A stretch of 55,522 nucleotides of DNA. Origin: a virus (lineage: Duplodnaviria; Caudoviricetes). Location of the stretch: the IMG/VR virus record IMGVR_UViG_3300029258_003280, positions 1-55,522 of that record; one strand, 5' to 3'. Both the position numbers and the translations under genes were made by a program. Under the pieces are notes generated by a model, which worked only from the letters and a program-made list of their open reading frames with translations, had not been told where the DNA came from and did not search any database. Of this stretch, positions 208 to 55,503 are shown piece by piece. The first letter of the stretch is position 1. Each line of letters starts with the position of its first letter.

Positions 208-825
208 ATGACCAGACGTGTAGCACCCGCTCCGCCGGGCGTTCCGGCATTGGAGCCAATCAGGCAAGACCTCTATGACACTAAAGTCCAGGACGGCTTG
301 GTGTCAACGCTCGAATTCTTCAGGAATCCGGGCATCGCGGGGCAGGCCGAGCTTGCAACAAACATGCAGGCGAACGGCCAGCTTCCCTATCCGCAGCAGT
401 TCCACGTCTTCGGGATAAACCTCGAATTTATCCCCACATTCGGCGAGGGCGCATCGGTGAGCTACGACAATGCCTTCTGGCAGAACAAGAAGAAAGTCCT
501 CGAACTCTGCTTTATGCGATTTCGCATAGGCTCCAAGGACTATCTTGTTGACCCCGCGAAGCGAATCCCGGCAGGCCTCGGCCCGGCAGGTTTCGCCAAC
601 GGAGCTCAGGCAATCGATGCATTCCCCACTAACGGGTTGCAGGACATCCAGCATTACTACGATGTCACGATTCGCCAGGGCGGAAAAATCAAACCCATCC
701 ACATCCCGGCACAGCAGTCATTCTTCATACAGCTTGTATGGCCGTTCGGGAACCCGGCGGTAAACCGCAATGGATGGGCGGTCAGGGCGTACCTCGTCGG
801 TATTCTCTGGAGAGAAGTTCAATAA
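208..825 (+). CDS. Putative major capsid protein 1 (single jelly-roll type)
   Basis: 205 aa, strong RBS, beta-strand pattern, LYDT..FF.NP..TNM..GQLPYPQQF motif; clear paralog of the next gene. The fold is inferred. Confidence 0.7.
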   Translation: MTRRVAPAPPGVPALEPIRQDLYDTKVQDGLVSTLEFFRNPGIAGQAELATNMQANGQLPYPQQFHVFGINLEFIPTFGEGASVSYDNAFWQNKKKVLELCFMRFRIGSKDYLVDPAKRIPAGLGPAGFANGAQAIDAFPTNGLQDIQHYYDVTIRQGGKIKPIHIPAQQSFFIQLVWPFGNPAVNRNGWAVRAYLVGILWREVQ

Positions 826-844
826 CTTGACATATTGATGAATA

Positions 845-894
845 GGGCGCATTCATAGCCTTCTTCCCCGCTTGCGCCCGAATGCGGGAAGAGG
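845..894 (+). promoter_or_regulatory. Putative H-type pseudoknot in the 5' leader of capsid gene 2
   Basis: GGGCGCA(845-851) pairs with TGCGCCC(873-879), interleaved with CCTTCTTCCCCGC(859-871) and GCGGGAAGAGG(884-894). Confidence 0.6.
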
Positions 895-917
895 AAAAAT
901 TTTCGATGGAGGTCGAT

Positions 918-1541
918 ATGACCAGACGTGTAGCACCAGCACCGGCAGGTGTCCCGGCGCTTGAGCCTATCGCTCAGGAACTTTATGACACCAAGGATTA
1001 TCCCATCGCGGGTACGGGAACTCTCACATTCTTCCAGAACCCCTCGGCTCTCGGAGAGATAGAGACAAACATGGTGGCTTCAGGCCAGCTTCCCTATCCG
1101 CAGCAGTACCATGCTTTCGGTATCTGTTTCGAGATTTTCCCGGGATACACCGAGCCCGAAGCGGTCGGCAACAACGTAGCGTGGGCTCGCGAAAAGCAGA
1201 AGCTCCGAGAAAAATGCTTCCTTCGCCTCACCATAGGCTCGAAGGACTACCTCACGCTGCCCGGATGCCACATTCCCGAAGGAATGGGCATTGCGGGATT
1301 CTCCGCGGGAGACGATACGCTCTCGAATTACGCATCGTTGACCCAGGGCATTCAGGACATCAAGCATGCTTTCGAGCTTACGGTGCCCCAGGCCGGAAAA
1401 ATCAAGCCCATCCATATCCCGGCCCAGCAGTCGTTCAAGGTCGAGATAAGATGGCCTACTCCGCTCGTGCTTGCGACACCGGAGCAGCCTGTCAAATTCA
1501 GAGTTTACCTCGTAGGAATACTCTGGAGAGAGGTACAGTAG
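918..1541 (+). CDS. Putative major capsid protein 2 (paralog of 208-825)
   Basis: Start moved to ATG 918 (GGAGG upstream, same MTRRVAPAP N-terminus). Shares GQLPYPQQ, IGSKDYL, GKIKPIHIPAQQSF and YLVGILWREVQ with capsid gene 1. Confidence 0.75.
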   Translation: MTRRVAPAPAGVPALEPIAQELYDTKDYPIAGTGTLTFFQNPSALGEIETNMVASGQLPYPQQYHAFGICFEIFPGYTEPEAVGNNVAWAREKQKLREKCFLRLTIGSKDYLTLPGCHIPEGMGIAGFSAGDDTLSNYASLTQGIQDIKHAFELTVPQAGKIKPIHIPAQQSFKVEIRWPTPLVLATPEQPVKFRVYLVGILWREVQ

Positions 1542-5323: not shown

Positions 5324-5331
5324 AGGTTAAT

Positions 5332-5592: not shown

Positions 5593-5601
5593 GAGAAACA
5601 G

Positions 5602-5988
5602 ATGGGTTTCGGTTCGCTTGTATATCCGCCGCAAATTATTCCGGCCGAGATGGTTTTTTACCGGCCAGACTTGGTACTTGCGGGCGTAACCCCTACGGTT
5701 GCGGATGTTGTTGCGGCTGGCTGGTTCAAGCGATGCCGGGGCATAGGCATCGGCATCGATGGCTCGGTATGGTGGATGTACTATGACGGCAGCGTTGTCG
5801 AGTCGGTCGAGCTATCATCTACCGGGTGGATTGACCTGTTTTTCGAGGATTTCGAAGCTGGCGACTGGCGCGGGCTTTGGAATGAGCCGACCATCCCGGT
5901 TTTTAATGAAAACTTCGAGGACGGCGACTGGCGAGGTGAATGGATGTCCACTAACAACGTATTTACCGAAGATTTTGAAAGCTGGTAG
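5602..5988 (+). CDS. Virion protein with a module shared with 6878-7093 and three F.E(D/N)FE repeats
   Basis: VADVVAAGW..G.GIG.DGSVWWMY.DGS is shared with 6878-7093; C-terminal FFEDFE, FNENFE and FTEDFE. Confidence 0.6.
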   Translation: MGFGSLVYPPQIIPAEMVFYRPDLVLAGVTPTVADVVAAGWFKRCRGIGIGIDGSVWWMYYDGSVVESVELSSTGWIDLFFEDFEAGDWRGLWNEPTIPVFNENFEDGDWRGEWMSTNNVFTEDFESW

Positions 5989-5997
5989 GAGAATAAA

Positions 5998-6672: not shown

Positions 6673-6878
6673 TGTATATAGAGATAGAGGAAGACGGAAC
6701 ATATAAGTTAAACGGAAAGCCGGTCGAAGTCACGCGGCTGGACGTGCTCGGCCATACAGTCGAGGCAATCTTTCACAAGGGGAGCTATTTCCCCGTAACC
6801 ATACCGGACAAGGGTAAAAATTTCCAGCAAGAGTTGAAAAAGGTGCTTCATAACCCAAATTTGTGGGAGGATAAATAA
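6672..6878 (+). CDS. Hypothetical protein
   Basis: ATG 6672 overlaps the upstream stop (TAATG); GGAG upstream. Confidence 0.55.
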   Translation: MYIEIEEDGTYKLNGKPVEVTRLDVLGHTVEAIFHKGSYFPVTIPDKGKNFQQELKKVLHNPNLWEDK

Positions 6879-7093
6879 TGGCTGCGCTGGCGTATCCGGA
6901 GCTCGTCATTCCCGTCGAATTGGCACGCTATAAAGAAGACGTAGCCTTATCCGGCGCGGTGCCGGTCGTCGCGGACGTGGTTGCGGCCGGTTGGAGCGGG
7001 GGCGACCGGGGAGTCGGCATTGGCACGGACGGCAGCGTTTGGTGGATGTATTTCGATGGCTCGGCGCTCGAAGCGGTCGAGCATACAGTATAG
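6878..7093 (+). CDS. Small virion protein, paralog of the 5602-5988 N-terminal module
   Basis: Shared VADVVAAGW..GIG.DGSVWWMY motif; GGAGG RBS. Confidence 0.6.
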   Translation: MAALAYPELVIPVELARYKEDVALSGAVPVVADVVAAGWSGGDRGVGIGTDGSVWWMYFDGSALEAVEHTV

Positions 7094-7102
7094 GAGGGCA
7101 TA

Positions 7103-8116
7103 ATGCCGCATAAAAGGCAGCATGACATAAATGATACTCTTGACCATGCGCCGGGAACTAACAATACCGTTCTCGGAACGGACGGCGGAGTGCTCGCCGA
7201 AGTACCGTTTTCGGCCGGGGTTTCCAATAATAACCTTGTTCAGAGGGACGGCAGCGGCGACATTGCGGTAAACCTCATCCCGGGCGGAGCATCGGCGGCG
7301 GCCAGCAAGCAATATGTTGACAATGTGGCGGTCGGGCTCAAGTGGGTTTCGCCCGCGCAGGTCTTAAAGATAAAAGACGATGGCGATGCGGGCGGAGCCC
7401 CCCCCGCAGCCAATCGCGGCGATGCTTTCGTGGTCAATAATTGGGGCGGGGGCTACAATGACGGGGATATCGTCGAGTACGACGGGACATCCTTTAATGT
7501 AATACTCTCCAATGTCGGCGGCGAGCCCCCGGATGGCACGAGAGCGGTCGTGATTGATGCGGCCGCGGCCGGGTCTTTTGCTGGTCATGAAGACGAAATA
7601 GCCACCTACGACACCGGAACAAGCTTATGGAGCTTTACTTCCCCGGTCGATGGGAATGCCATTCTTATCGTGGGTGAAAACGGAATAAATGAAAATCGAG
7701 CCTATACCTATGACGCCGCTCCCGGCGAATGGATACAATTCTCTTCGCTTGGAGCTTTCGAGCAGATGCAGTTTTATTTCGGCGTGGACGGAACCATCGC
7801 GGTAGGCGACGACCAGACGCTCTGGCTTATAGCGGGACAGGCCGTAACCGCGATAGAGGCTTATGCCGCAATTAAGACCGCCCCCACCGGCGCGGCTCTG
7901 ACCATTGAAATCGAAAAGTCGAGCAACCTCGGCGGCGCTTGGAGTACGGTAGTTTCTTCGGCGGCGCTTCAAATAGCGGCCGGTGCTCAGGAGGGCGAAG
8001 CTACCGGACTCTCGGTTTCCATCGCGAAAAACGACATACTCAGAATCAACATAGACCAAGTAGGCAGCACGGTCGCGGGCGCGGACTTGTCTGTAGTTTT
8101 GAAGGTGATAAAATGA
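7103..8116 (+). CDS. Fibre or spike protein with a DUF2793-like central region
   Basis: AASKQYVD fibre motif, G.FAGHEDEIA..W.F..P..G motif, beta-rich C-terminal domain. Confidence 0.55.
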   Translation: MPHKRQHDINDTLDHAPGTNNTVLGTDGGVLAEVPFSAGVSNNNLVQRDGSGDIAVNLIPGGASAAASKQYVDNVAVGLKWVSPAQVLKIKDDGDAGGAPPAANRGDAFVVNNWGGGYNDGDIVEYDGTSFNVILSNVGGEPPDGTRAVVIDAAAAGSFAGHEDEIATYDTGTSLWSFTSPVDGNAILIVGENGINENRAYTYDAAPGEWIQFSSLGAFEQMQFYFGVDGTIAVGDDQTLWLIAGQAVTAIEAYAAIKTAPTGAALTIEIEKSSNLGGAWSTVVSSAALQIAAGAQEGEATGLSVSIAKNDILRINIDQVGSTVAGADLSVVLKVIK

Positions 8117-8433
8117 TAACAAGTAAAATATTCGAGGTAAGCGGCGGTTACGGTTATGACATATTAATAGATGGGAAGCTGTTTATTCGCCAGCCCCATG
8201 TCCCGGCGATAGGCGGAATGGTTATTATGACCCGCACCCAAGCAGAAAACATGGCGGCATTGGTGATAGACAAACTCAATGACAAGCGTACCGTGCAAGA
8301 AAATGAAGAGCTTCAAACGCTGCTGCAAAAGGACACCCTTACCGAACAGGAAAAAGCGAGGGCGGAAACGCTTTCGAACAAGGAAAACCCGACCGTCACG
8401 GTCGCGGAGGCTGAGAGCATTGTAAATGGGTGA
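8113..8433 (+). CDS. DUF4907-like protein
   Basis: ATGA overlap with the upstream stop; GYGYDI..GK..I.QPH.PAI.G..A...A.LVI.KL motif. Confidence 0.55.
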   Translation: MITSKIFEVSGGYGYDILIDGKLFIRQPHVPAIGGMVIMTRTQAENMAALVIDKLNDKRTVQENEELQTLLQKDTLTEQEKARAETLSNKENPTVTVAEAESIVNG

Positions 8434-9307
8434 TAGCTGGCAAAGAAAAACTGACTACGGAGGCTCGGCGAAGTTTCGGGCCGTAGGCTTTGCTATCGGG
8501 AGCAAGGGCTACATAGGCACCGGGTGTTGGGGTACGAGCGAATACAAGGACTTCTGGGAATATGACCCCGCCGCCGATGCCTGGACTCAGAAGGCCGACT
8601 TTCCGGGCAATCATAGATATGCCGCGGCGGGCTTTGCCATAGGCTCATACGGCTATCTGGGTACGGGTAAAAACACTTCGACTTTCAATGATTTTTACAG
8701 GTACGACCCCTCGACTAATTCATGGCTCGCAAGGCAGAATTTCGGCGGGTATATCCGGTATGGCGCGGTCGGCTTCGCTATCGGAAGCAAGGGCTATATG
8801 GGGACTGGCTGGAAAACATCGCGCAAGGTTGATTTCTGGGAATACAACCCGGCGACTAATGCCTGGACTCAGAAAGCGAACTTCGGCGGCGCGGCGAGAC
8901 TATATGCTACCGGCTTCGGCCTCAACGGCAAGGGCTATCTGGGCACCGGCAACACGGACGGCGGCGTTCCCGTAAAAGATTTCTGGGAATACGACCCCGA
9001 CCTAAATGCGTGGACTCAAAAAACCGACTTCGGCGGAAGCGCCCGGTATGAAGCTGGCTCATTTACCCTCGGCGAAAAAGGATATATCGGCTTCGGTTGG
9101 GACGGAGCGACCAAGAATGACCTCTGGGAATACGACCCGAGCGCGGATTCATGGACTCGAAAATCCGATTGCGGCGTTACAATGGGATATTCACCATCGG
9201 GCTTCGCGATAAACTTCAAGGGATACATGGGCGTGGGCCAGACCGAACAATTTTGGGAATGGGGCACGGACTCCTTTAAGGCAATGATGATTCAAATGAC
9301 ACCATAG
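8426..9307 (+). CDS. Kelch-repeat beta-propeller protein
   Basis: About six repeats of R..A.GFAIG.KGY.GTG....DFWEYDP....W.QKA.F. Confidence 0.9.
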   Translation: MGDSWQRKTDYGGSAKFRAVGFAIGSKGYIGTGCWGTSEYKDFWEYDPAADAWTQKADFPGNHRYAAAGFAIGSYGYLGTGKNTSTFNDFYRYDPSTNSWLARQNFGGYIRYGAVGFAIGSKGYMGTGWKTSRKVDFWEYNPATNAWTQKANFGGAARLYATGFGLNGKGYLGTGNTDGGVPVKDFWEYDPDLNAWTQKTDFGGSARYEAGSFTLGEKGYIGFGWDGATKNDLWEYDPSADSWTRKSDCGVTMGYSPSGFAINFKGYMGVGQTEQFWEWGTDSFKAMMIQMTP

Positions 9308-9316
9308 GAGAAGATT

Positions 9317-9598
9317 ATGGATGGTAAAAACGGAACCAAGATGGTAGCCTTGTCACTTCCGGTAGTCGTGATTATACTCGGTGCGCTGGCGACGCTTCTA
9401 ACGAGCTCTCTTCTGGCTTACAGCGATGTATGCGTGGATATAAGGGGTAATAGCGAAAACATAAAGAGTATAAAATACCAGCAGGACAGGGAAATGTCTA
9501 ATTTGAACAAAAAGATAGATGAGCTTCGCGAGGACATTAAAAACCTCAACGACAAGATAGACAAGATGTTCTGGCCGTTTACGAAAAAAAAGGATTAG
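9317..9598 (+). CDS. Membrane-anchored coiled-coil protein (possible lysis protein)
   Basis: N-terminal TM segment followed by a heptad coiled coil. Confidence 0.55.
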   Translation: MDGKNGTKMVALSLPVVVIILGALATLLTSSLLAYSDVCVDIRGNSENIKSIKYQQDREMSNLNKKIDELREDIKNLNDKIDKMFWPFTKKKD

Positions 9599-9603
9599 CC
9601 AGC

Positions 9604-9819
9604 ATGCAAGAAGACTACAAAGCGATGTTAAAAGCAACCAACCTTAAGGGCGCTCTAATATCACTTAAGGAAGCTTCAATGCATCTGGAAAGGGCCGGGG
9701 AAACGGCCCTTCTTAAACAATGTAAGAAACTCGGCAAAGACATAGTAAAAAGAGCCTATGACGAGTTTCATGAAAAATATCCTAACCTGTGGCGAGGACT
9801 CGAAGGAGAAGAAAGATGA
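9604..9819 (+). CDS. Hypothetical protein
   Basis: Operon packing, helical. Confidence 0.55.
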   Translation: MQEDYKAMLKATNLKGALISLKEASMHLERAGETALLKQCKKLGKDIVKRAYDEFHEKYPNLWRGLEGEER

Positions 9820-10130
9820 ATTGGATAGCCGAAAATTACATGGCCATGATATTTCTTGTGACAACCGCGATGTCGCTAATAATCGCCGTACTCAACCACA
9901 TCGGCAAGAAAAAGACGGCCGCGAAGGTGCAGGCCTTTAAGGACATCCTCCATCAGACTTTCGGCAATGTTGAAAGCCTCAAGGTCAAGTGGAAGGAAAG
10001 CGGCCTTGAAGACAAGTATGGCCGTATAGGCAGTATCTTCGCCGAGATAAACAAACAATCCGATATCGAGGAAGTTTTAAGAAAGGCCTACGAGGAATGG
10101 GCCAAGCAGCAAGGAATCAAGGTAAAATGA
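9816..10130 (+). CDS. Single-TM membrane protein (holin-like candidate)
   Basis: ATG 9816 overlaps the upstream stop; MNWIAENY followed by a TM segment and a basic stretch. Confidence 0.5.
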   Translation: MNWIAENYMAMIFLVTTAMSLIIAVLNHIGKKKTAAKVQAFKDILHQTFGNVESLKVKWKESGLEDKYGRIGSIFAEINKQSDIEEVLRKAYEEWAKQQGIKVK

Positions 10131-10170
10131 AGATATACTTTTTAAGACAGGATGTTTAAGGAGGTTAGTT

Positions 10171-10452
10171 ATGAAGAGGCTTTGTATGATAATGATATTG
10201 GCCCTTACTTGCTGCGCTTGCGCTCCTCTGATGCACAGGACGGTAGCCGAGCAGACGGTCAGGCTCGACAAGAACTTACACGAGCTCCTTCCGGGGTACA
10301 GGCTTGTACTTAATGACGAGCTCGAAGAGGCCGAAAAGCTCCCGGATGGGCCGGTCGAAGATATAAAGCATGATATATTGCTTCTCGATGCGACCCTGCT
10401 ATTGAGCGAAGACATGAGAAAAACGGCGGACTTGACCCTTAAGGAAAAATAG
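10171..10452 (+). CDS. Putative lipoprotein
   Basis: MKR plus hydrophobic core plus Cys lipobox-like ALTCCAC; AGGAGG RBS. Confidence 0.55.
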   Translation: MKRLCMIMILALTCCACAPLMHRTVAEQTVRLDKNLHELLPGYRLVLNDELEEAEKLPDGPVEDIKHDILLLDATLLLSEDMRKTADLTLKEK

Positions 10453-11712
10453 ATGGCTAAGGCTCCGAAAGTCAGGATTACATATTATGACGAGTATAGT
10501 CGCGAGATGGACTATACCATCGGCAAAAACCGGTACAGGGCTCACGGCATCGAAAAGCTTTTTTACAATGATATAATAAATCTTATAGACCGTAAAAAGT
10601 ATGGAGATGCGATAAAGCTGCTGCGGAAAATAAAGCAATACCAGAAACTCCCGGAGGGAAAAATGGACAATCCAGTTGACAGGGCGGTAGAATGTGCGAT
10701 GAATCAATTCGGCGCGAATCCCCTTAACCAGAGCGAATTCAACAACAAAATCGAGAGGGTTCAAGTCCATCTCGACAAGGGAAAGTCGCTGCTTCGTTCC
10801 GGGCAGGCGCATCTCGCCGAAGAAGAGGCCTATCAGGGTCTCGGACTGCTCGAAGGGGTCGAGGCCGAGGCCGCCTCGATAATGGGCACGAGCGGAGAAA
10901 AGCGCCGTATCGTTCACGAGCTTCGCGCTTCGCTCAACAAGCTCATCGGCCACTCCGATGAAAGGCAGGGTCGAGCTCCTAATCCGCTTACCCAGAATGA
11001 ATATGACAGTCTTCTTGACATGATTATTCATACCGTTGATTTGGCCGAAAAGGAATACAAATGGGGTAATATAGCCGATGCAGTCGAGCGGATTAACTAC
11101 GCCGATGGCTTGATGGGGGCCGCCTACGGCGCGATACTAAAGCCCGGAGTTAAAACCAAGGAGAAATTCAGGGGAGTAAACAACAGGCTAAGGGCCCTGC
11201 AAAAGACATTGCGTGTCAAGTATCTTCCCAAGAAAAAGAATCCGGATGATTGGCAGCATCCGAGCTTGGGCTCTTCCGATATCGCCCCGGGTTACTTTAT
11301 AAATGTTCATGGAGCTCCCGGGTTAATGGTTGGCTATGAGTTCGAGGGTTATGACAGGCCCAGATGGGAAGAAAAACCCTCGCACCCACATCCCCATTAC
11401 AAGCTTATAGTCCTGCATGGCAAGAAGAAACAGACCTTCAACTATTGGGGGAGCCGACATGATTACGACATTGGTAAAAAGACCCTCTCGGAGATTGAGC
11501 TTGTCGAGGCGTTTACCATGCTTCTGGAAGATATCCGGGCGTCCAAGTTGACATTAAAAGACTTCGCCCTCGAATTCGGCTATGTTACTCAGGCGGCGGC
11601 CACAGCGACATGGAAAGCCTGTAAGACTATTCACGAAAAATGGAAGAAGCTCAACTACAGAAGGGGCTTAAGCAATACCATAAATGACATAAGAGACCAT
11701 TACGACCTTTAG
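10453..11712 (+). CDS. Multidomain protein with NP-delimited modules
   Basis: Four NP motifs (MDNP, GANP, APNP, KKNP); two helical modules begin NPL(N/T)Q.E. Confidence 0.7.
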   Translation: MAKAPKVRITYYDEYSREMDYTIGKNRYRAHGIEKLFYNDIINLIDRKKYGDAIKLLRKIKQYQKLPEGKMDNPVDRAVECAMNQFGANPLNQSEFNNKIERVQVHLDKGKSLLRSGQAHLAEEEAYQGLGLLEGVEAEAASIMGTSGEKRRIVHELRASLNKLIGHSDERQGRAPNPLTQNEYDSLLDMIIHTVDLAEKEYKWGNIADAVERINYADGLMGAAYGAILKPGVKTKEKFRGVNNRLRALQKTLRVKYLPKKKNPDDWQHPSLGSSDIAPGYFINVHGAPGLMVGYEFEGYDRPRWEEKPSHPHPHYKLIVLHGKKKQTFNYWGSRHDYDIGKKTLSEIELVEAFTMLLEDIRASKLTLKDFALEFGYVTQAAATATWKACKTIHEKWKKLNYRRGLSNTINDIRDHYDL

Positions 11713-11726
11713 AAAGGAGTGTTACT

Positions 11727-12305
11727 ATGCCTATGTTTATAGGACAACAGGGAGGCGGAATGTCGAGCTCGCTCGCGACCGGCAACCCGCAAGCCGAAGA
11801 CAGGAAGGACACCGAGCGGATAGCCCGTTTGGTTGCTATGGCCCGGCAGGGCCAGGGCCAGCTTAGTCTTCCGGAAACAAAGCTTCTCAAGAAGATACAG
11901 CGTGAGCGCGAAAAACATGCCAAGGCTCAAGCCGACTGGCAGCGCAGGGCGGCCGCGCATCGCCAGAAGATAAGCATGCTTCTTGACCAGTTAGAGCAGG
12001 TCAGGAGTCCGCGGCCGGAAGGAAGATTCCAGCAGGCGGCCGCGCAGCCTCGCGTAGTCGGCAAGGGAAACCGCAAAGCCATCTCGAAAGCAAGAGCAAC
12101 CCGAAGAGCACCGGCGCCCGAGCCACCGGCGAGAGTAGCCATGCCTCGCAAGGAAAGAGTCCAGCAGCAGATGCGCCAGCAGTCCAGACGGTTAGCAAAG
12201 AGGAGCATTCCCGCCCAGGCGAAGGCGGCGAGGGGTATCCCCGCCCAGCAGGAAGTGGTCAGGGCTCCGTTGAGAAGAATAAAATCCGTACCGTGGCTCA
12301 GATAG
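11727..12305 (+). CDS. Arg/Gln/Ala-rich basic protein (possible core or DNA-condensing protein)
   Basis: AAGGAG RBS; strongly basic composition. Confidence 0.6.
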   Translation: MPMFIGQQGGGMSSSLATGNPQAEDRKDTERIARLVAMARQGQGQLSLPETKLLKKIQREREKHAKAQADWQRRAAAHRQKISMLLDQLEQVRSPRPEGRFQQAAAQPRVVGKGNRKAISKARATRRAPAPEPPARVAMPRKERVQQQMRQQSRRLAKRSIPAQAKAARGIPAQQEVVRAPLRRIKSVPWLR

Positions 12306-12314
12306 GAGGTATCA

Positions 12315-12686
12315 ATGAGCATTAACACCGAAATTGAAAGGCTTAAAGAGGTTTACGAAACAATAAAGAATGACAAGGAAGCAAAAGCCATTATCAAGGA
12401 AGGCAAGTCGATTATAGATGCCTTCCTTAAGAAAGGCGACAAGGACATCATCGCCAAGTTGACGGGCTACGCCGATGTGGATGAAACCATTGCTCTGGCC
12501 CACAAGGGACAGCAAATGCGCGAAGCATATCAAGCCCGGACTAAGGCGATTCATTTTATAACTAACGTCCTGCAAGTCGTCTCTCGCTTTATGCCCGTAG
12601 TCAAGGAGGCGGCGAAAGCGGCCGACAACATAAGAAAAACGGCGGAAAAAACCGTCAAGAAAAGCCTCAAGAGAAGGAAGAAATAA
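12315..12686 (+). CDS. Lys-rich helical hypothetical protein
   Basis: GGAGG RBS. Confidence 0.65.
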   Translation: MSINTEIERLKEVYETIKNDKEAKAIIKEGKSIIDAFLKKGDKDIIAKLTGYADVDETIALAHKGQQMREAYQARTKAIHFITNVLQVVSRFMPVVKEAAKAADNIRKTAEKTVKKSLKRRKK

Positions 12687-15600
12687 ATGGAAAGCCCTAC
12701 GAAGCTTCATGGTATTCATGTAACAAGCGACCCCCAGCCGGTGCTCGATGTATTGCGAAGCGGCGGCGATATTTCCAAGGGCAGGGTTGAAGGCCTCGTA
12801 GGCGACCTCGGAAGCTCGGGCCTCTATTTCAGCCAGTCTCCCCAGTTGTGGACGGGCCGGGCCTACGGCAAGTGGGAGTTTCTTAAAGGGCTCTCGAAAA
12901 CCCAGCGTGAAAAGCTCGGCGACAAGCTCACAAAAGAGCTCCAAGACGAAAGAAGCTCGGGATATATAACGGAATGGGAGCTCGAAAGCGCGTTAAGATA
13001 CATAGACCAGTATGTAAACCATGACTTTGCGGGCTCTATAGTAATGATTGCGGGGCAACCTTACAACATAGGCTTCTGGAAGGAAAAATGGCTAAGCCCT
13101 CTGGGTATCGAGCAGGCAAGGCCGCCTATGTATATCGAAGTCGAGGCCGAGGGTTTGTTTGCGGACTTGACCGGCATGGCTATAACCCCCGATTTGATAC
13201 AAAAACTCAAGGAAGAAGGATATGACGGCGCTTACCACCGTGGCGATATGATTAACCTGCCTCAAAGCGTTGTCTGGAATACCAATGCCATAACCAAATT
13301 CGGGGAGATGTCATTCGCTCACAATCCGGCTTACTGGCCTATCTTCGCGGCCGGGATAGCTTCCGGGGTGGCAAGCGGCGCGGCCTTCGCTATTACCGGT
13401 TATGCCCTCAATAAATACGCCAGCAATCCCGAAATTAAGGTTTACAAAGGGGCTCTCGGGACTCCTGCGGTCGATTGGCCCGATGGTAAGACTTACATGT
13501 TGTCATACAGGAGTTGGGATGGGGCCTATGTCTTCGTTGACCCCGATACGAAACGTAGGCTTGAATTTGCTCCGCCCGAGGGCCGTAAATGGGAAACAAG
13601 CCCGATGGCCCCGGGTAAGCGGCCGGGATTTTCCCGGGTACAGAGACCGGGAGAATGGGTTTATGACCCGGCAGCGCGAAAGGTTTACAGGAGACCGGCC
13701 GACAATCCGGAGATGGTATCCCCGCATCCGGAAGAGGTCGAGCACCTCAGCGAGCAGGTGAAATTACTCTGGCAGAAAGCATGCGAATGGGAAGGAATCC
13801 CCCCGGACAGCAAGGTTGTAATATTCAGCAAGGACAATCCATACAATGATGCCTACAATAAGGCGATGACACAATACATGAAAACAAGAAAAGAGTTTTA
13901 CAAGGCGGTCGGCAAGCTCTTTGAGCGAAAGCGAGAGGAAAGAATGGACAATCCTATAGACGATTACAAGGGTTTTCGCGCTTGGATTACTCCCATCCCG
14001 GAAGAGAAAAGCGAAGGAAAATGGGATTGGGATGTAAAAGTCCAGCGCCTAAGCGATGGCAAGACAAAGACATTAAAGGTTTCCGGTGGCTGGCAAGTCG
14101 CCGAGAGCTACGTCCGGCAACTAATGGATGAGCTCGGCGAAGACGGCTATGCCAAAAACCCGACAACCAAACAGCCTTGGGAGATGACATATAGAGAGCT
14201 TAGAAACAAACTCGAAGAACTTGAAATGGGAAGCTTAACAGATTTTAATGAATCTAACATTGTAATATCAATGCCGGAAATAGTTATATCCCCGGGCAGA
14301 ATCGACTATACGGGGTTGTCGGCTGCTCATAGGTCGGCGATATCAAGAGCCCTCTCTCAGGGTTTTCAGGTGCCAGCAAAGGTGTTAAGGGAATATAAAG
14401 AAAACCCATCACGTAATGTTTTGCAGGTTTGGGCCGAAGATTTACATCCATCTCAAGCCAAAAAAGCCATTGATGGATGGGCATATGTATTTTGCTATAA
14501 TACTTGGGATATGCGCGGGCCGATTATAACCACCAAACTTGCAAGCCAAGCTTTGCCAGGAAGCGACATTGAATTCTTTCAGAAAAAGTTCGGTCGTCAC
14601 AAGTTTCGTGTCGTGAAAGCCCCGACCGCCAGCAATCCTAAATACATGAAATTCAAAGACCTGGACAAGGGTGCCGTTTTTATCTTCGCATCGGAAAAAG
14701 AATTTCCATATAGCGGCATGGCCAAGGGGCCTTGGAAGAAAATATCATCGAAAAAATACATTCTCGAAGATGAGCCATCGGTAGAGCACCAGGTGGGGAG
14801 CGTAAATGCCGAAGTTATACCCTACCACCAGGCCCGGAAAGGCTATATAGCGCCTTCAGAGCTACCGCCCGCAGGCCGTACAATCCAATTCTACGAAGGC
14901 GGCAGGCTTTTTACGGGCAGGGTAGTAGAGCAGGAACCGGAACTCGACGCCGTGCGGGTAGTTCCGGATACGGACAAGCATGCATTGTGGCTGATAAGCA
15001 GGGTAATGATAGTGGGCTCATACGCCAGCAATCCTCTCAATACGCAAGAAACCGCCGAGCTCGTGCATCTGGCCCGGATAGCTCTTGATACAGCGAAAAA
15101 AAATGTCAAAGGCAAACAATGGTCGATAGTAGCTTTTTATATAGGCGCAGCAGATGCCAACATCGAAGCCGCTTACCAGCATGGACTCGAAAAAACACAT
15201 ATGTCTAAAGAACTATTTGATGAGATAAGGCGCATGCGCAAGGAAATAAAAGACTTTCAAAAAGAACATTCAAGAGCACTGCTCGGTCTCACCAGCAACC
15301 CCGAAAAACCCGGCGTAGTTTGGCCGGTGGGTGCGAAGTTGTATGATAAGCAGGGTAAGTTGGTAGGGGTATGCCTCGATACGCCGAATGCTATAGCTAA
15401 GGCAATGATGGAGCATCCGGAAATAGAAGCCGCTCATACTCTTCTCGGTGTTAAAACGCGAGAGGACTACGTAAGCAGAATGCAGCCTTGGAATACAGCT
15501 AAAAGCCATTTTAAGGCAATGGCCGAAAACCCGGAGGGGTATCAGGGCTGGAAAAACTACGAAACATGGAACGTGGCCCTCTGGATGGGCAACGATGAAT

Positions 15601-17243
15601 TCTGGTATGATGTGGCAAAACATTCCCTCGATTACAGGCGCTTCAAAAATGCGATGATAAATCGTCATGGAATAACCGAGACCCCGGACGGCGTAAAGCT
15701 ACGCAGTCAAAAGCTCGACCGTAAGGCGCTTGACGAGCTCATCCTCGACCTCGGCGGCGGGAAAAAAGCCATAGAAAAACGCAAGCTCGAAAAGAGACGC
15801 GCCGCAAGAGAAGCAAAAGCCCAAACCGGTAAATATGCGCTCTTGAAGGACAACAAGGTTATCTTCGAGGGCACCAAAAACGAATGTCTTGCTTTTCTAC
15901 AAAGGCACCAGGGCCGGTCATGGGATTACGCCTTCAAATACGGCGGATACAGGCTCATCCCCATAAAAGACCTCCCGCCCGACGTCATTCGCATACCCAA
16001 GGGAATGACATCCGAAGGCTTCGTTTACAATCCTCAAAACACGCCTTGGGGAAAGGCCCAGAACCAGACAAAGCTCGCCAAGGGCGTTACCTGGGTTAGC
16101 ACTTCGAGGCACGGCGGGATGATGGTATCGGAAGGATATGCCAACAGGAATCTCAGTATCGCGGCCCGGAAACGGGCTCTCCGATACGGCAAGTATTATT
16201 GCTATGAGGAAGACGATGCCTGGATGATACCGGCATGGGAGCTCCCCCAAGTTTGGGATGAACTTTTCAAATACATGGAGCCCTCCAACTACAAGGAGAG
16301 GAAACTTTATCTTCTCGAAGGGTTGTCACGCTGGAATGCGGACTATCTTCTCGATATTCATGAAACTCCCATCCAGCCGCAATATGACCTATGGCGAGCC
16401 AAGCAAGCCGAAGAGAAATTGAGGCAGATGCAGCATCCCAATCTCATCACGGCTGCCAAACGGACAAGCGACCCCCACATCACTCAGGTATGGACGGCCG
16501 ATGGCGAAACTCATTTTGTTACCGCGAAAAGCTATTCGGAAAAATACCATCCCCAATACCCGACTTATCTAACCGACATGGAGATTGCCCATCCTCCTAC
16601 GCCGAAAGCGATGGGCCCGGCAGACTTCGTGTATAATCCCAAGAAAGCAGGCGGCCTCTACCAATACCGCGAACTCTACAGGAAGAAAAACAACTACATA
16701 CTTTATACAACCATAGGGGGCTTGGGTTGGTCTCGAAGCCGAAGAGACATATATGAGCCTATGGGGTATCCGGGCAAAATAGAGGTCGTGATAGGAAACA
16801 AAAAAGGCGACATAGTTTATGTCGATTCCGCCTATCTCAAGTCAACCAAAAACATTACCTTGAAAAACATTTCCTACTATGACAAAAGCACCATACCTCT
16901 GTACATGCAAAAAGAGGTCGTTAAAATATTCAAGGAGTTTGCCGGGAAAAGCAAGCCGCGCAAAGCCATCAGGGAACTAATGTCGATGGGCGAGTATCCG
17001 ACCGCTTTTCATAAGGAATTCAGCAGCAACCCCCAAAAACATCCCGACGAGATGACTCTGGCAGAGCATGCGGAAGCGTGGTGGCGCGAGCAGGGCAAGA
17101 AGGTGCCGAGACGCAACACTAAGAAATGGAAAAAAATGTATGAAAAATGGGTTGCCTTTGCCTTTAAGGATTTCGGCAAGAATCCGCCCCGGGGCAGGAC
17201 TACAAAAACCTATGGCGGCAAGGGCGGCGCATTACCCAGATAA
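12687..17243 (+). CDS. Large polyvalent-type multidomain protein: N-terminal ADP-ribosyltransferase-like domain, DUF7007-like domain, 15 NP motifs
   Basis: 1518 aa; H..S..G.G.GLYFS..GYDG..QSVVW pattern at the N-terminus; TPWG..Q....GV.WVST..HGG..YEED..W module; GWKNYETWNVALW module. Confidence 0.7.
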   Translation: MESPTKLHGIHVTSDPQPVLDVLRSGGDISKGRVEGLVGDLGSSGLYFSQSPQLWTGRAYGKWEFLKGLSKTQREKLGDKLTKELQDERSSGYITEWELESALRYIDQYVNHDFAGSIVMIAGQPYNIGFWKEKWLSPLGIEQARPPMYIEVEAEGLFADLTGMAITPDLIQKLKEEGYDGAYHRGDMINLPQSVVWNTNAITKFGEMSFAHNPAYWPIFAAGIASGVASGAAFAITGYALNKYASNPEIKVYKGALGTPAVDWPDGKTYMLSYRSWDGAYVFVDPDTKRRLEFAPPEGRKWETSPMAPGKRPGFSRVQRPGEWVYDPAARKVYRRPADNPEMVSPHPEEVEHLSEQVKLLWQKACEWEGIPPDSKVVIFSKDNPYNDAYNKAMTQYMKTRKEFYKAVGKLFERKREERMDNPIDDYKGFRAWITPIPEEKSEGKWDWDVKVQRLSDGKTKTLKVSGGWQVAESYVRQLMDELGEDGYAKNPTTKQPWEMTYRELRNKLEELEMGSLTDFNESNIVISMPEIVISPGRIDYTGLSAAHRSAISRALSQGFQVPAKVLREYKENPSRNVLQVWAEDLHPSQAKKAIDGWAYVFCYNTWDMRGPIITTKLASQALPGSDIEFFQKKFGRHKFRVVKAPTASNPKYMKFKDLDKGAVFIFASEKEFPYSGMAKGPWKKISSKKYILEDEPSVEHQVGSVNAEVIPYHQARKGYIAPSELPPAGRTIQFYEGGRLFTGRVVEQEPELDAVRVVPDTDKHALWLISRVMIVGSYASNPLNTQETAELVHLARIALDTAKKNVKGKQWSIVAFYIGAADANIEAAYQHGLEKTHMSKELFDEIRRMRKEIKDFQKEHSRALLGLTSNPEKPGVVWPVGAKLYDKQGKLVGVCLDTPNAIAKAMMEHPEIEAAHTLLGVKTREDYVSRMQPWNTAKSHFKAMAENPEGYQGWKNYETWNVALWMGNDEFWYDVAKHSLDYRRFKNAMINRHGITETPDGVKLRSQKLDRKALDELILDLGGGKKAIEKRKLEKRRAAREAKAQTGKYALLKDNKVIFEGTKNECLAFLQRHQGRSWDYAFKYGGYRLIPIKDLPPDVIRIPKGMTSEGFVYNPQNTPWGKAQNQTKLAKGVTWVSTSRHGGMMVSEGYANRNLSIAARKRALRYGKYYCYEEDDAWMIPAWELPQVWDELFKYMEPSNYKERKLYLLEGLSRWNADYLLDIHETPIQPQYDLWRAKQAEEKLRQMQHPNLITAAKRTSDPHITQVWTADGETHFVTAKSYSEKYHPQYPTYLTDMEIAHPPTPKAMGPADFVYNPKKAGGLYQYRELYRKKNNYILYTTIGGLGWSRSRRDIYEPMGYPGKIEVVIGNKKGDIVYVDSAYLKSTKNITLKNISYYDKSTIPLYMQKEVVKIFKEFAGKSKPRKAIRELMSMGEYPTAFHKEFSSNPQKHPDEMTLAEHAEAWWREQGKKVPRRNTKKWKKMYEKWVAFAFKDFGKNPPRGRTTKTYGGKGGALPR

Positions 17244-17657: not shown

Positions 17658-18563
17658 TTAGGAGCTCTCTTCCACGACAGGCTCCGCCTCATCTATAAAA
17701 AGATTGCGCTGCATCTCCCCCTCGGGGATATCGTAGTTGCCTATCACGAGCTCGGTTACACGCTTCCCCTCGGTGAAGACGTTCTCGGAAGTGTAGATGG
17801 TGGGTACTTCTCTTATCGTAAAATCTTTATACATTTCTCTGGCTTCCTCGCAGTCATCTATACTGAGCATCCAGTACCCCTTGAACTTTGCTAATATGGC
17901 CGCAAGGTCTTCATGGTCTTTCATGGTAAAGTCGTTGGCATAACAGGCAACCGGATGCTTGGTGACACAGAAATATGGCGGGTCGCAATAAGCGAAGACT
18001 CGCCGCTTCTTAGTCTTCTTTGTGGCCTTCTTGTTGACGATTTTGAGGAATTCCCGGAAGTCCCTGTTTTCAATTATAACATCCTTAAGCCGCTCGAAGA
18101 CTCCCTGCCAATCTACGCCGTAAAAACCCGTCATTTTATCGGTGCCAACAGTAGAGCCCCATACCTCTTCGCCCGTAAAAAGTCTCATCGTACCGAACGA
18201 GCTTTTAATCAGGTAGTAAGCCATCGCGGCCCGGATATAAGGCGTAATGTCTTTGTAGGTCTCGGGGTCGCTCAGGGCCTCTCGATACTCATAAAATAGA
18301 GCTCTACTTTTTGGGTGAAAGGTCAGATACGAAACAAATTTCTCATGGAGCTCCGGGTCTTTGACCACCTTCCAGAGGTTAATCAGGAGGTCATCGACAT
18401 CACATACCCATTCCTGCTTGCTCTCTTTCTTCCAGAAGAGAAGATGGCCCGCTCCCAGAAATGGCTCTACATAGATATCATGCGGCGGGAACATAGTAAC
18501 AAGTTTGCGCTTGAGACGATTCTTACCCCCAATCCAGCTTAGCGGTGTTTCGATTTTTGACAT
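17658..18563 (-). CDS. DNA adenine methyltransferase, D12/Dam family
   Basis: WIGGK, YVEPFLGAG and YCDPPY motifs. Confidence 0.9.
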   Translation of the reverse strand: MSKIETPLSWIGGKNRLKRKLVTMFPPHDIYVEPFLGAGHLLFWKKESKQEWVCDVDDLLINLWKVVKDPELHEKFVSYLTFHPKSRALFYEYREALSDPETYKDITPYIRAAMAYYLIKSSFGTMRLFTGEEVWGSTVGTDKMTGFYGVDWQGVFERLKDVIIENRDFREFLKIVNKKATKKTKKRRVFAYCDPPYFCVTKHPVACYANDFTMKDHEDLAAILAKFKGYWMLSIDDCEEAREMYKDFTIREVPTIYTSENVFTEGKRVTELVIGNYDIPEGEMQRNLFIDEAEPVVEESS

Positions 18564-49177: not shown

Positions 49178-49744
49178 ATGCCAATACATGAGATTTGTAC
49201 CACCGGCGAAGTACCGGTAAGAGTGCAAAAAATCAACATCCCAAACGGTAATGCCGGGATAATGGTTTCGGCTAAGAAGATAGTCGAGCTTATCCGGGAA
49301 TATTCCGCAAATCAGGAACGCATTCGCTTTCTCGCCGAAGATATCACCAGAGGTTGCAGGTCTAAGGATTATCTCTGCAATGCAAAAAGCGTCTATGATT
49401 GGGTTAAGGCCAATATCAAGTGGGACAGAGACCCGGATGGCATGGAAATGCTTCGCTCGCCCATTGTCACTCTCGACAGGCGGGTGGGGGACTGCGATGA
49501 CCATACCATTCTTATAGCGTCTCTTCTCAAGAGCATTGGTATGCCGGTCAGAATCGTGCTTATAGCGTCCCGGAGTTACCGGCCCGAAATATACAACCAT
49601 GTTTTAGTGGAAACTCTCGCGCCCGTAAACGGCGAGATGAAATGGGTTGCAATCGACACGACGCCTCTGGATGTAAACGGTAAGTATTTTCCCTTCGGCG
49701 TCAGGCCTCCTTCATATAAAGCGAAGGTAATGGAGGTAAGATGA
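49178..49744 (+). CDS. Transglutaminase-like cysteine protease or transpeptidase
   Basis: GDCDD..ILIASLL..IG, NHVLVE and W.AIDTT give a Cys-His-Asp triad. Confidence 0.85.
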   Translation: MPIHEICTTGEVPVRVQKINIPNGNAGIMVSAKKIVELIREYSANQERIRFLAEDITRGCRSKDYLCNAKSVYDWVKANIKWDRDPDGMEMLRSPIVTLDRRVGDCDDHTILIASLLKSIGMPVRIVLIASRSYRPEIYNHVLVETLAPVNGEMKWVAIDTTPLDVNGKYFPFGVRPPSYKAKVMEVR

Positions 49745-53486: not shown

Positions 53487-54326
53487 ATGGCAAATTATTT
53501 GTTCAAAAACCCGGGTAAAGGCAAAAGACGGCCGCCTAAAGAGTGGTTTTACTATACGGTCGAAAGGGTGAAGCAAAAACTGAAAAAGCGCGGTTTCAAA
53601 CATCGTCCGGGAAGCCCGTACAAGACCATACCTCAAGTTGCCAAGGCGATAGTCGGCGGTATGTGGTGGGGGACGACCGATGGACTCCACGAAAGCACGA
53701 AGCGCGACATTATAAGCGAAGTCATTAAAAACAGGGCCAAGGGCAAGGCCGCCGTGGTTACCAGCGATGGCACATTAACAAAGAAAGAAGTCAAGAGCGA
53801 GGTCGGCAAAAAGGCGGCCGAGAGCATATACAAGAAACTAAAGCTCACGAAGACGGAAATCAAAGAAGCCAAACAATTAAAGCGGGGAGTTCCCGCTATC
53901 GAACGGATAGCCGAGAGGCGAATGGTCGCTCCCAATCCTTCATTGCTTGTTGTTACCGGCAATCCGGGTATAGATTTATATGACAAGGGCAATCCTCCAT
54001 CGCTCGAAGACTTCAAGGAAGCCTATCCCGAGCTCTGGAAGGCCGCCATGAAACAATATAAGAAATTTCATGGCGTAGTGCCCGAAACGGTACAGATGCA
54101 ATGGGTTGATTCGGATGTTCCTCCCATACTGATTAAGATGGGAGATGCGCCCGATGTAACCTATCATGTCAAGGGGGCCAGCAAGAAACAGAAAAAGATA
54201 CCCTTTAAGCATGACTACAAGGGCGTTGTACATGTCTGTACCGATGCCAACGGCAGGATGATATTTCACATACCGGACGCCAAAAAAGGCAAAAATGTAA
54301 AAGTTACGGATTGGGTCAGAGGTTAG
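53487..54326 (+). CDS. Basic virion protein with four NP motifs
   Basis: FKNP, APNP, TGNP and KGNP; C-terminal Y.KFHG..G....V.Y......F.H module. Confidence 0.65.
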   Translation: MANYLFKNPGKGKRRPPKEWFYYTVERVKQKLKKRGFKHRPGSPYKTIPQVAKAIVGGMWWGTTDGLHESTKRDIISEVIKNRAKGKAAVVTSDGTLTKKEVKSEVGKKAAESIYKKLKLTKTEIKEAKQLKRGVPAIERIAERRMVAPNPSLLVVTGNPGIDLYDKGNPPSLEDFKEAYPELWKAAMKQYKKFHGVVPETVQMQWVDSDVPPILIKMGDAPDVTYHVKGASKKQKKIPFKHDYKGVVHVCTDANGRMIFHIPDAKKGKNVKVTDWVRG

Positions 54327-54336: not shown

Positions 54337-55503
54337 ATGTGGGTATTTTTAGCGAATCCGCCCGAAAAAACGAAGGGAGGCAGTAAAGTGAGTTCCACTA
54401 CAAGAACGGGCAACAAGTTTCGGTCGCTTGTCAGGAAGCATGGCGTCACCAAGGGCGCCAAGGAATATAGAAAATGGAAGAGGGAGCAAAAACGGAAAAA
54501 GCCCTCTAAGAAGGCCAAGGCGAAAGGAGGAAAGCGTATGGCCAAAAGAGCATCTGGTTACAAGGCGCTCGTCAAGAAACACGGCGTCAAGAAGGCAGCG
54601 AAAATGTGGAGGGGTCGCGGAAAGAAAAAATCTTCGCGCAAATCCACGAAGGGCCGGAAACGCGCAACCGGCTACAAGGCGCTCGTCAAGAAGCACGGCG
54701 TCAAGAAGGCGGCGCGGATGTGGAGAGGTCGCTCGAAGAGCACCAAGAAGCGCTATGCCGCCAATTCATGGTCGGGCGACAAGAAGGGCCATTCCATCGC
54801 TTCGGCGGCGGGATGGGCGAGGCGTAAAGGCGTCCCCGTCCCCATATACCTTTCGCAGCGAGGCTACAGCAAGGCCGCAATCGACAGGTACATCAAGAAG
54901 CATGGCCCGGTCGGCAGAAGCCACAGGTCATACACCAAGACATACCCGGCGCGAAGCGCCAGGTATGCCATGAATCCCCTCGATACCGGCGTGGAAACCG
55001 TAAAAGGCGTCTTCGCCACGGAAACCGCCAAGACGGTTTTCGGTGTCGGTCTCGGATTCGTGGGGGTTGCGCTCGGAAACGCCGTAGTGCGCAGACTCAA
55101 ACCCGCAGCCGGGGGAGCCATGATAATCGGCGGCGAATTCGGCGGCTCGATACTTGCGGGCGCGGCCTATGCGATGGCAACGAAAGATGTCACCAAGGGC
55201 CTCTTGACCGCAAGCTCCGGTATCGCATTGAGCGTCTTCAAATTCGTCTGGGGCAAGTATGTCTCGGGCAGGAGTATATTCGGCCTCACCATGCCCGGCC
55301 TCAGCGACTATGTTGAGCTCCCCTACGGAGTCAGCGACTATGTTGAGCTCCCCTACACGGCGGGTTACGGCATGGGTCAGTCGCTCGATACCGGCATGGG
55401 CCAGTTCCTTCCCCCGGAAGCGGCGGAAGTAGGACAGTTCATTCCCGAGCAGTTCGGAGAATACACGGTAGGCATCGGCGAAGAAGCCGAAGTCGAATAT
55501 TAA
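54337..55503 (+). CDS. Putative DNA-condensing core protein precursor (basic repeats, TM helices, acidic tail)
   Basis: GYKALVKKHGVKKAA.MWRGR twice plus degenerate copies; hydrophobic helices after MNP; SDYVELPY twice (55301-55326 and 55331-55356). Confidence 0.7.
   Translation: MWVFLANPPEKTKGGSKVSSTTRTGNKFRSLVRKHGVTKGAKEYRKWKREQKRKKPSKKAKAKGGKRMAKRASGYKALVKKHGVKKAAKMWRGRGKKKSSRKSTKGRKRATGYKALVKKHGVKKAARMWRGRSKSTKKRYAANSWSGDKKGHSIASAAGWARRKGVPVPIYLSQRGYSKAAIDRYIKKHGPVGRSHRSYTKTYPARSARYAMNPLDTGVETVKGVFATETAKTVFGVGLGFVGVALGNAVVRRLKPAAGGAMIIGGEFGGSILAGAAYAMATKDVTKGLLTASSGIALSVFKFVWGKYVSGRSIFGLTMPGLSDYVELPYGVSDYVELPYTAGYGMGQSLDTGMGQFLPPEAAEVGQFIPEQFGEYTVGIGEEAEVEY

Follow-up and report, generated by a model that had tools for sequence, protein, structure and literature searches.

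Polyvalent proteins, in which many unrelated small domains are carried by a single polypeptide of a mobile element, were described by Iyer, Burroughs, Anand, de Souza and Aravind in 2017 (PMC5512222); the phage representatives lie among the virion genes of portal-terminase phages and are packaged, and ADP-ribosyltransferases (ARTs) are the commonest protein-modifying domain of the class. The same build, with many small domains in one chain, is found in the gene at 12687-17243 (+) of IMG/VR virus record IMGVR_UViG_3300029258_003280, a complete virus record with direct terminal repeats whose full length of 55,522 bases is referred to here as the window. This gene starts with ATG, codes for 1518 amino acids (aa) and is the final gene of the + arm, which runs from 46917 to the end and continues from 1 to 17243, the - arm occupying 17313-46451. 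Its product is very probably a polyvalent protein whose modules are joined at Asn-Pro (NP) dipeptides, which are called seams in the following. As an overall explanation of the data, a membrane-anchored polyvalent chain in which NP serves as a processing signal is given a probability of roughly one half.

The chain shares several properties with the class as described in PMC5512222. About 14 modules are present, compared with the 2 to 15 or more distinct domains per polypeptide by which the class is recognized, and the varied domain orders across elements are seen in six related proteins (P0002, P0004, P0005, P0009, P0156, and P0168). As in the class, the domains also occur as solo proteins, the gene appears to be encoded among late or virion genes, and the head is probably of ART type. 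The chain differs in having a two-residue seam at nearly every joint and a membrane anchor; moreover, no MPTase or other peptidase domain was found in it, and no portal or terminase was recognized in the proteins scanned. The seam motif is not met in the available part of PMC5512222, where the words 'linker' and 'transmembrane' each occur 0 times.

Two further systems are comparable in their use of a very short motif or of Asn chemistry. In T4, cleavage by gp21 follows L/I-x-E and takes off capsid-targeting sequences and propeptides 7-65 residues long; its substrates include the packaged ADP-ribosyltransferase Alt and core proteins that are cut in several pieces (PMC9026906). Processing of this type, and that of the phiKZ/SPN3US gp175 type, is similar to the processing proposed here in its very short cleavage motif and in leader removal, but the motif is Asn-Pro instead of Glu, and the capsid would be of a jelly-roll rather than a tailed-phage type. 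Asparagine peptide lyases also employ Asn chemistry, the bond being Asn-Pro in FlhB/YscU, and many of them are virion proteins maturing in the particle (PMC3207474); these have one site each in a dedicated fold, whereas the chain has 14 inter-module sites without a common fold. Full-text literature searches on Asn-Pro polyproteins, virion cleavage, and lyases found no description of a strict Asn-Pro seam at protein joints.

The 15 NP dipeptides lie at residues 213, 247, 340, 384, 422, 491, 573, 650, 782, 871, 948, 1115, 1317, 1448, and 1499. A first-pass annotation, made from the letters of the window alone, had listed their contexts (AHNP, ASNP three times, ADNP, KDNP, MDNP, AKNP, KENP, TSNP, AENP, VYNP twice, SSNP, and GKNP) and judged them to be several-fold above a rough chance expectation of 3-4; every context was matched exactly, and the excess was confirmed, since the composition of the protein (54 Asn and 93 Pro) predicts 3.31. 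Shuffled sequences gave a mean of 3.31 with a standard deviation of 1.73 and reached 15 in 0 of 20,000 cases. The Poisson tail is 2.2e-6, or 3.7e-4 when the expectation is raised by the 1.58-fold NP excess of the - arm. NP is the most enriched dipeptide of the protein (4.5-fold), followed by HP (7 against 2.0 expected), and the other pairs ending in Pro stand at 0.86-fold (DP), 1.18-fold (SP), 1.81-fold (TP), and 0.43-fold (GP). In 14 NP-rich relatives, NP occurs 80 times compared with 14.6 expected, with every other such pair at 1.4-fold or lower; Asn alone serves before Pro at the seams. The residue that follows is not that of two familiar motifs: Gly follows none of the 15 NPs, the 2A-like ribosome-skipping motif being Asn-Pro-Gly-Pro, and Pro follows only one of them (NP1499), the sites of Pro-Pro endopeptidases being xNP↓P.

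The excess is located at the protein level. Across the 15 sites, Asn is written as AAT ten times and as AAC five times, and Pro appears as each of its four codons; AAYCC is found 15 times in frame, compared with 1 and 4 in the two alternative frames. This codon variation places selection at the level of the protein, and together with the frame-specific excess it rules out a DNA-level motif or recombination signal. In 91 greedy open reading frame (ORF) calls (34 on the + arm and 57 on the - arm), NP occurs 45 times against 18.8 expected on the + arm and 27 times against 17.05 on the - arm; excluding the 1518-aa gene, the + arm still has 30 against about 15.5. The mild virus-wide over-representation, visible on the - arm, could be taken to mean that the excess is a by-product of composition, a DNA motif, or chance. 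Such an origin has a practically negligible probability, given the shuffles, the tail on the virus's own baseline, the frame specificity with varied codons, the placement at joints described below, and the same excess in relatives (11 against 2.4 in P0002, 16 against 2.8 in the polyprotein of the distant virus L011, and 15 against 3.2 in that of L010).

Module borders were placed by homology, namely by Pfam starts, stand-alone homologs of eight module families, and module gains and losses in relatives. A HMMER search with residues 213-947 against 1.84 billion representative proteins gave 255 matches at E<=0.001, and most of the 150 matches listed are proteins of 49-120 aa. When the ends of the listed homologs of up to 120 aa were projected onto the chain, five families appeared, at residues 344-409 (36 proteins), 419-491 (5), 576-649 (1), 652-718 (25), and 866-946 (32), and all five start within about five residues of an NP. 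For residues 948-1518, a word-based search found solo DUF7249 proteins (projected to 938-1026), DUF7007 proteins (starting at 1105-1117), and a family of 41-70 aa on 1439-1515. Pfam places DUF7249 (PF23907) at residues 950-985 with 47.0 bits against a cut-off of 27, right after NP948, and DUF7007 (PF22653) at 1116-1240 with 63.8 bits against 27, right after NP1115. Solo forms of these two families have no preceding NP, whereas here they are two beads of a 14-bead chain, each after an NP; a literature search by name and accession found no paper on either. Solo DUF7249 genes were seen among small hypothetical genes of T4-like cyanophages and a solo DUF7007 gene on a Vibrio plasmid.

On this map, 14 of the 15 NPs fall on homology-defined borders, in agreement with the first-pass view that they sit at apparent domain starts. 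The four examples it had named also hold, with NP948 leading into DUF7249, NP1115 into DUF7007, NP491 into the PWEMT module, and NP1448 into the MTLAEHAEAWW module. The objection that NPs might fall inside folded domains applies to NP384 only, which falls within the 344-409 family and is shared by 35 of the 38 stand-alone homologs listed; judged by this homology, it is a conserved structural NP that appears intrinsic to its domain. The proposal of a modular chain was likewise borne out, in that a string of autonomous modules with NP at the borders is found. The further first-pass proposal, a virion-packaged polyprotein that would be cut or cross-linked at xNP sites to release a dozen small anti-host effectors on entry, is a hypothesis here. 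These alignments predict an ART-like head and a single membrane helix, followed by about twelve other small, autonomous modules, each 50-200 residues long. Eight or more modules occur elsewhere as free-standing small phage or plasmid proteins, and ten of about 14 have homologs that are solo or differently fused. Repeats of the PWEMT module, mostly after NP, make up part of another relative, P0139, in which, as in P0168 (NP-helix-NP), the arrangement of NP and helix is also present. Sequence searches of solved structures with the 1518-aa protein and with a profile of its head module gave 0 matches.

The seams could still have been the first element of each domain, carried along wherever the domain goes. 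Eight modules were therefore scored, in all fetched proteins, for an NP within the 14 residues upstream of each copy. NP precedes 26 of 50 internal copies and only 5 of 140 N-terminal (stand-alone) copies (Fisher 1.3e-13), with none among 11 solo DUF7007 proteins and none among 16 N-terminal DUF7249 copies. NP in the module copies is specific to joints and is therefore not part of the domains, so that an intrinsic domain start is ruled out for the seams and accepted for NP384 alone. Conservation points in the same direction: of the 16 NPs covered by alignments to six relatives, 15 are retained, where identity would predict about 6.7, these pairs not being independent, and the single exception is an alignment gap. 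Upstream, the seam in this lineage usually has an aromatic or hydrophobic residue at -3; aromatic residues occupy this position in 24 of 63 non-redundant contexts of the close lineage compared with a background of 9.5%, and the preference is phase-specific.

Relatives show the seam being kept while modules are exchanged. The 1187-aa ortholog in a 57-kb sister virus (P0002) has the blocks 1-257, 867-1318, and 1452-1499 in common with the chain; it is without residues 1319-1450 exactly from seam to seam, FVYNP running straight into the next module, and it has an extra module inserted after NP213, ahead of the helix. Subsets of the modules, differently ordered and likewise linked by NP, are found in P0004, P0005, P0009, P0156, and P0168. 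The closest partial relative is P0004, with 80% identity over residues 1-492; it is recorded on a 3.7-kb contig under a Candidatus Omnitrophica metagenome bin, which may be a hint of the host or a binning accident. Viral-contig scans with the whole 1518-aa protein and with the product of 53487-54326 returned no relatives. The sister virus G001, found by such a scan with a capsid-like protein, has 57,047 bases and terminal repeats, is syntenic with the window at 30-85% protein identity, and retains 17 NPs out of the 25 that the + arm has outside the big gene, where about 10.3 would be expected. A small alignment of the module-G family retrieved L010 (44-kb record) and L011 (72.7-kb record), two distant viruses with only faint similarity to the window. 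Their polyproteins have 15 and 16 NPs against 3.2 and 2.8 expected, respectively, and an 11-residue seam, (G)VR(K/R)NIFTFN-NP, recurs 2 and 3 times in them before different modules.

The NP mark is also present on late-arm proteins other than the 1518-aa chain. An NP within the first 11 residues is found in 3 of 34 + arm proteins and in 0 of 57 - arm proteins, and the three leaders MKYSD-NP, MANYLFK-NP, and MWVFLA-NP are all kept in G001. The G001 ortholog of the 10453 protein (G001 31872-33803) has 643 aa and 6 NPs, whole segments having been inserted at NP sites. In both distant viruses, the gene next to the polyprotein (L010 11829-12941; L011 13035-14153) is a homolog of the 54337 protein, which has 2 NPs against 0.19 expected; these homologs start with MIGALVFA-NP, and six NPs separate their Arg-rich blocks. 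The very basic region of the 54337 protein may be DNA-condensing. The C-terminal domain of the 53487-54326 product (residues 150-277) has a counterpart, at 35% identity (E 4e-17), in the final module of P0156, an NP-seamed protein with DUF7007 encoded on a different contig; the proteins of the structural arm and the polyvalent chains therefore share one module pool.

The head module was examined by three weak lines of evidence which agree, and for this reason residues 1-212 probably adopt an ADP-ribosyltransferase fold, as a lead and not as a finding. H11, Y47, and Q193 are invariant in six head-module homologs. An AlphaFold2 (AF2) model with a predicted local distance difference test score (pLDDT) of 71.6 gave tankyrase/PARP as the top Foldseek rows at E about 0.09, and all six full-span rows of an exhaustive structural search belong to the ART superfamily (NatT, Z 6.5; MbcT, Z 5.7; SAIP; two tankyrase entries; PARP2, Z 4.9), every one of them below the 'clear' level of the tool (Z below 8). 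A language-model (Atlas) search placed the head beside ART-PolyVal/AcrIF11 ADP-ribosyltransferase clusters at 0.91-0.92. The PF18760 hidden Markov model has no match in the window at E<=10, which counts against an ART-PolyVal assignment, and Pfam lists nothing for residues 1-212. In polyvalent ARTs (PMC5512222), the third catalytic residue is Asp (H, Y, and D on strands 1, 2, and 5), whereas the head has Gln (Q193). The head module is matched, with 31% identity over residues 11-216 (E 2e-17), by a solo gene of 313 aa carried by a plasmid-like element from an uncultured archaeon (L004; LC711081.1 82501-83442).

As to the role of the seam, the chain would be synthesized from the late arm and anchored by its single membrane helix, and a viral protease would cut at the NP seams, freeing the modules from the anchor as separate small proteins. 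The same protease would trim the three short leaders off the other late-arm proteins. Cutting of the Asn-Pro seam by a viral protease is tentatively proposed, at a little short of an even chance, on the basis of sequence patterns and of analogy with known processing systems. A recognition signal is favoured by the exclusive use of Asn, the aromatic residue at -3, the repeated seam upstream of NP, and the leaders that have no upstream domain. Proteolytic processing has itself been proposed for polyvalent proteins (PMC5512222).

The same seams could instead remain uncut. NP would then be a minimal insulator, with Asn as a cap and Pro as a breaker, placed between modules and at the start of membrane helices in one long tethered chain, and the insulation would allow modules to be swapped without misfolding. 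This somewhat unlikely alternative agrees with the position of NP ahead of membrane helices, seen in five late-arm proteins as well as in the distant transglutaminase-like proteins, with the structural conservation of the internal NP384, with the free choice of residues after NP, and with the delivery of some polyvalent proteins in unprocessed form (PMC5512222). It does not account for the specificity of the pair, as the equally good cap-plus-Pro pairs SP, TP, DP, and GP show no such enrichment, nor for the conserved N-terminal leaders ending in NP, which have no preceding domain to insulate, nor for the phase-specific aromatic residue at -3 and the repeated 11-residue seam. In addition, the occurrence of free-standing homologs of 41-100 aa suggests that each module works as a small protein by itself.

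Cutting by a viral protease calls for an enzyme, and scans of the window have given few names. PHROGs has no family for 18 of 20 proteins scanned, the two with matches being the primase and the methyltransferase; Pfam has none above cut-off for 10 + arm proteins scanned, and NCBIfam gave nothing on late-arm proteins. Neither a T4-type gp21-like serine prohead protease nor any other peptidase family was found in the proteins scanned, which do not cover every ORF of the window. This outcome, together with the strict need for Asn before Pro, would fit an enzyme-free cleavage in which the Asn side chain attacks its own peptide bond by the succinimide route, slowly or on a trigger in the particle; since Pro blocks deamidation, cleavage would be the only outcome. 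Precedents are FlhB/YscU at Asn↓Pro-Thr-His and reovirus mu1 at Asn42, and five of the ten asparagine peptide lyase families are viral coat proteins (PMC3207474). Self-cleavage is nevertheless improbable here, given that known lyases cut in a folded, strained site with catalytic partners whereas the seams lie outside the homology-defined domains, and it leaves the -3 aromatic residue and the NIFTFN repeat unexplained. Furthermore, an Asn-Pro bond in a peptide needs weeks to months to break without a catalyst.

The conserved Cys-His-Asp protein of transglutaminase fold encoded at 49178-49744 is the foremost candidate for the enzyme, although its identity with the seam-cutting protease is doubtful. 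Its ortholog in G001 is 74% identical, and diverged homologs with GDCD, HV, and LD motifs, which align with the window enzyme as GDCD, HV, and (I/L)D, lie directly upstream of the NP polyprotein in both distant viruses. There the enzymes (L013 and L014) form one frame of 554/555 aa that ends in NP, a membrane helix, and an Arg tail, whereas in the window the corresponding protein is split just before the NP into 49178-49744 and an overlapping frame, 49741-50604, which starts with MKYSD-NP followed by the helix. Because this synteny with NP proteins has been observed in four viruses of a single broad lineage only, it does not count as independent evidence. The intact Cys, His, and Asp of this syntenic enzyme also suit a different role, in which it would make isopeptide links through the carboxamide of the seam Asn, or deamidate it, and so fix the chain to capsid, membrane, or core; enzymes of this fold do act on side-chain amides. 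Such attachment is highly improbable: a link at each joint of a chain of 14 modules would serve no obvious purpose, trimming is the better fit for leaders that end in NP, and no known transglutaminase uses Asn-Pro.

Several observations weigh against NP as a processing signal and should be read together. The virus is uncultured, and cutting and packaging are predictions from its sequence. At about residues 1023-1048, where DUF7249 meets the phrog_38200 unit, the joint is a basic linker that lacks NP, and 24 of the 50 internal copies of the same modules do without NP. These NP-less copies belong to proteins in which NP is not used, such as P0145 (0 against 1.7 expected), P0084, and P0034, so that the seam is a habit of the lineage and not a property of the module; in P0003, the head module is internal, between Pro-rich linkers, and NP occurs 4 times against 2.7 expected. 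The aromatic preference at -3 is weaker outside the close lineage (30 of 147 contexts overall), and the residues following NP are nearly unconstrained. NP is a good pair for starting a helix or breaking a strand, and it often stands directly before membrane helices, as an uncut structural role would also explain. No known virion-maturation protease family was found, in scans that did not take in every ORF of the window. The synteny of the candidate enzyme is limited to four viruses of one broad lineage, and the transglutaminase fold is also used by cell-wall hydrolases and cross-linkers. Finally, packaging in unprocessed form is reported for polyvalent proteins, N4 vRNAP among them (PMC5512222).

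The + arm is nearly blank to PHROGs, Pfam, and NCBIfam, the exceptions being a Kelch propeller and the transglutaminase-core protein at 49178-49744, and membrane helices are common among its proteins by hydropathy. The arm of the 1518-aa gene also holds capsid-like, Kelch 'virion structural', and membrane proteins, and the chain appears, from this gene content, to be made from the late or structural arm of a virus with a jelly-roll-type capsid. The two capsid-like paralogs have 205 and 219 aa; an AF2 model (pLDDT 52.8) shows eight strands and one helix, its Foldseek matches, at E 0.016-0.09, consist almost wholly of single-jelly-roll capsid proteins, and a weak Atlas pointer leads to PRD1 P3 and PM2 P2. 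That they are jelly-roll capsid proteins, marking the + arm as structural, is offered as a lead, not a finding. A third, diverged capsid-like copy lies on the - arm at 29559-30263 (-). No portal, terminase, or packaging ATPase was recognized in the window proteins scanned with PHROGs and Pfam. The gene at 8426-9307 codes for the Kelch-repeat propeller with a PHROG 'virion structural protein' match, and its neighbour at 7103-8116 has weak DUF2793/CBM matches; both are absent or replaced in G001 and are thus probably host-recognition proteins. On the - arm, a 968-aa protein of primase/polymerase-helicase type (39828-42734, -) and a DNA methyltransferase (17658-18563, -; phrog_56) are the only clearly named genes of the replication arm in the scans made. 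The features of the main gene and of the other NP-marked genes are collected in Table 1.

Table 1. Positions in the window of the modules and seams of the 1518-aa protein and of associated genes (res, residues of the 1518-aa protein).
Feature	Position	Strand	Evidence
Whole gene, very probably an NP-seamed polyvalent protein	12687..17243 (stop codon included)	+	ORF, NP count, relatives P0002/P0004/P0168 of like grammar
Module 1, probable ADP-ribosyltransferase-fold head, res 1-212	12687..13322	+	Invariant residues, AF2, structural searches, Atlas
NP213, hydrophobic helix (res 219-237) and NP247, predicted membrane anchor between two seams	13323..13430	+	Hydropathy 1.71 over 219-237
Module A, res 249-339	13431..13703	+	Kept in P0004 only; P0004 matches 213-494 at 80% identity
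NP340, module BC (res 342-421, internal NP384 at 13836-13841), NP422	13704..13955	+	36 solo homologs on 344-409
Module D, res 424-490, and NP491	13956..14162	+	5 solo homologs on 419-491
Module E, res 493-572, PWEMT type, and NP573	14163..14408	+	P0005 is head, NP, then module E; P0139 repeats
Module F, res 575-649, and NP650	14409..14639	+	P0019 (74 aa) projects to 576-649
Module G with extension, res 652-781, and NP782	14640..15035	+	25 solo homologs on 652-718; P0009 colinear as far as NP782 and different beyond it
Module H, res 784-870, and NP871	15036..15302	+	Weak similarity to 175-265 of the 10453 protein, E 0.003; P0002 block starts at 867
Module I, res 873-947, and NP948	15303..15533	+	32 solo homologs on 866-946; N-terminal NP in 0/32
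Module J, res 950-1114: DUF7249, basic NP-less linker, phrog_38200 unit, NP1115	15534..16034	+	PF23907; phrog_871 945-1022; phrog_38200 1049-1089
Module K, res 1117-1316: DUF7007, then NP1317	16035..16640	+	PF22653; 11 solo homologs start at 1105-1117, none with N-terminal NP
Module L, res 1319-1447, and NP1448	16641..17033	+	Absent from P0002 exactly seam to seam
Module M, res 1450-1498, NP1499, 18-residue basic tail	17034..17240	+	About 20 solo homologs of 41-70 aa on 1439-1515
Second NP-seamed protein, 419 aa, 4 NP against 0.84 expected	10453..11712	+	NP count, G001 ortholog
Transglutaminase-fold Cys-His-Asp enzyme, candidate seam reader	49178..49744	+	PF01841 47.6 bits against cut-off 23; G001 ortholog
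Leader MKYSD-NP, then membrane helix	49741..50604	+	G001 leader MQYRE-NP; matches NP and helix C-terminus of distant fused enzyme
Late-arm protein, leader MANYLFK-NP and 3 further NPs, 4 NP against 0.54 expected	53487..54326	+	NP count, G001
Late-arm protein: leader MWVFLA-NP, very basic region, NP, hydrophobic domain	54337..55503	+	NP count, G001, L010/L011 homologs
Two paralogous capsid-like genes	208-825 and 882-1541 (208..1541)	+	Conserved in G001; AF2 model; Foldseek; weak Atlas lead

The polyvalent class as such is known; what the window adds to it is the statistic on joints versus termini, the short leaders, the preference at -3, the membrane anchor, and a syntenic enzyme of transglutaminase fold. 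Modules on either side of the seam are exchanged, the seam itself being conserved, and short leaders of other late proteins end in it as well. In its furthest form, the proposal would have Phi-x-x-Asn-Pro act as a new cleavage code for virion maturation in a lineage of prokaryotic viruses that have jelly-roll capsids and internal membranes. A transglutaminase-fold Cys-His-Asp protease would read this code, and the chain would be a true polyprotein cut into about fourteen small proteins; this form is unlikely on present evidence. If it were true, the particle would bring a ready-made 'early proteome', including an ADP-ribosyltransferase, into the next cell, and proteins that other phages express from separate small genes would come from one late, membrane-anchored chain, for which the protease-processed core polyproteins of adenoviruses and asfarviruses would be the suggested counterpart. 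More generally, if the seam is cut, it would represent a new protease specificity and a new route by which prokaryotic viruses deliver many small host-takeover proteins at once. It would also provide a simple rule to split hundreds of uncharacterised giant viral proteins into working units, and protein engineers would gain a compact, naturally occurring 'cassette' format. An uncut seam would still clearly illustrate a grammar by which protein modules can be exchanged freely.

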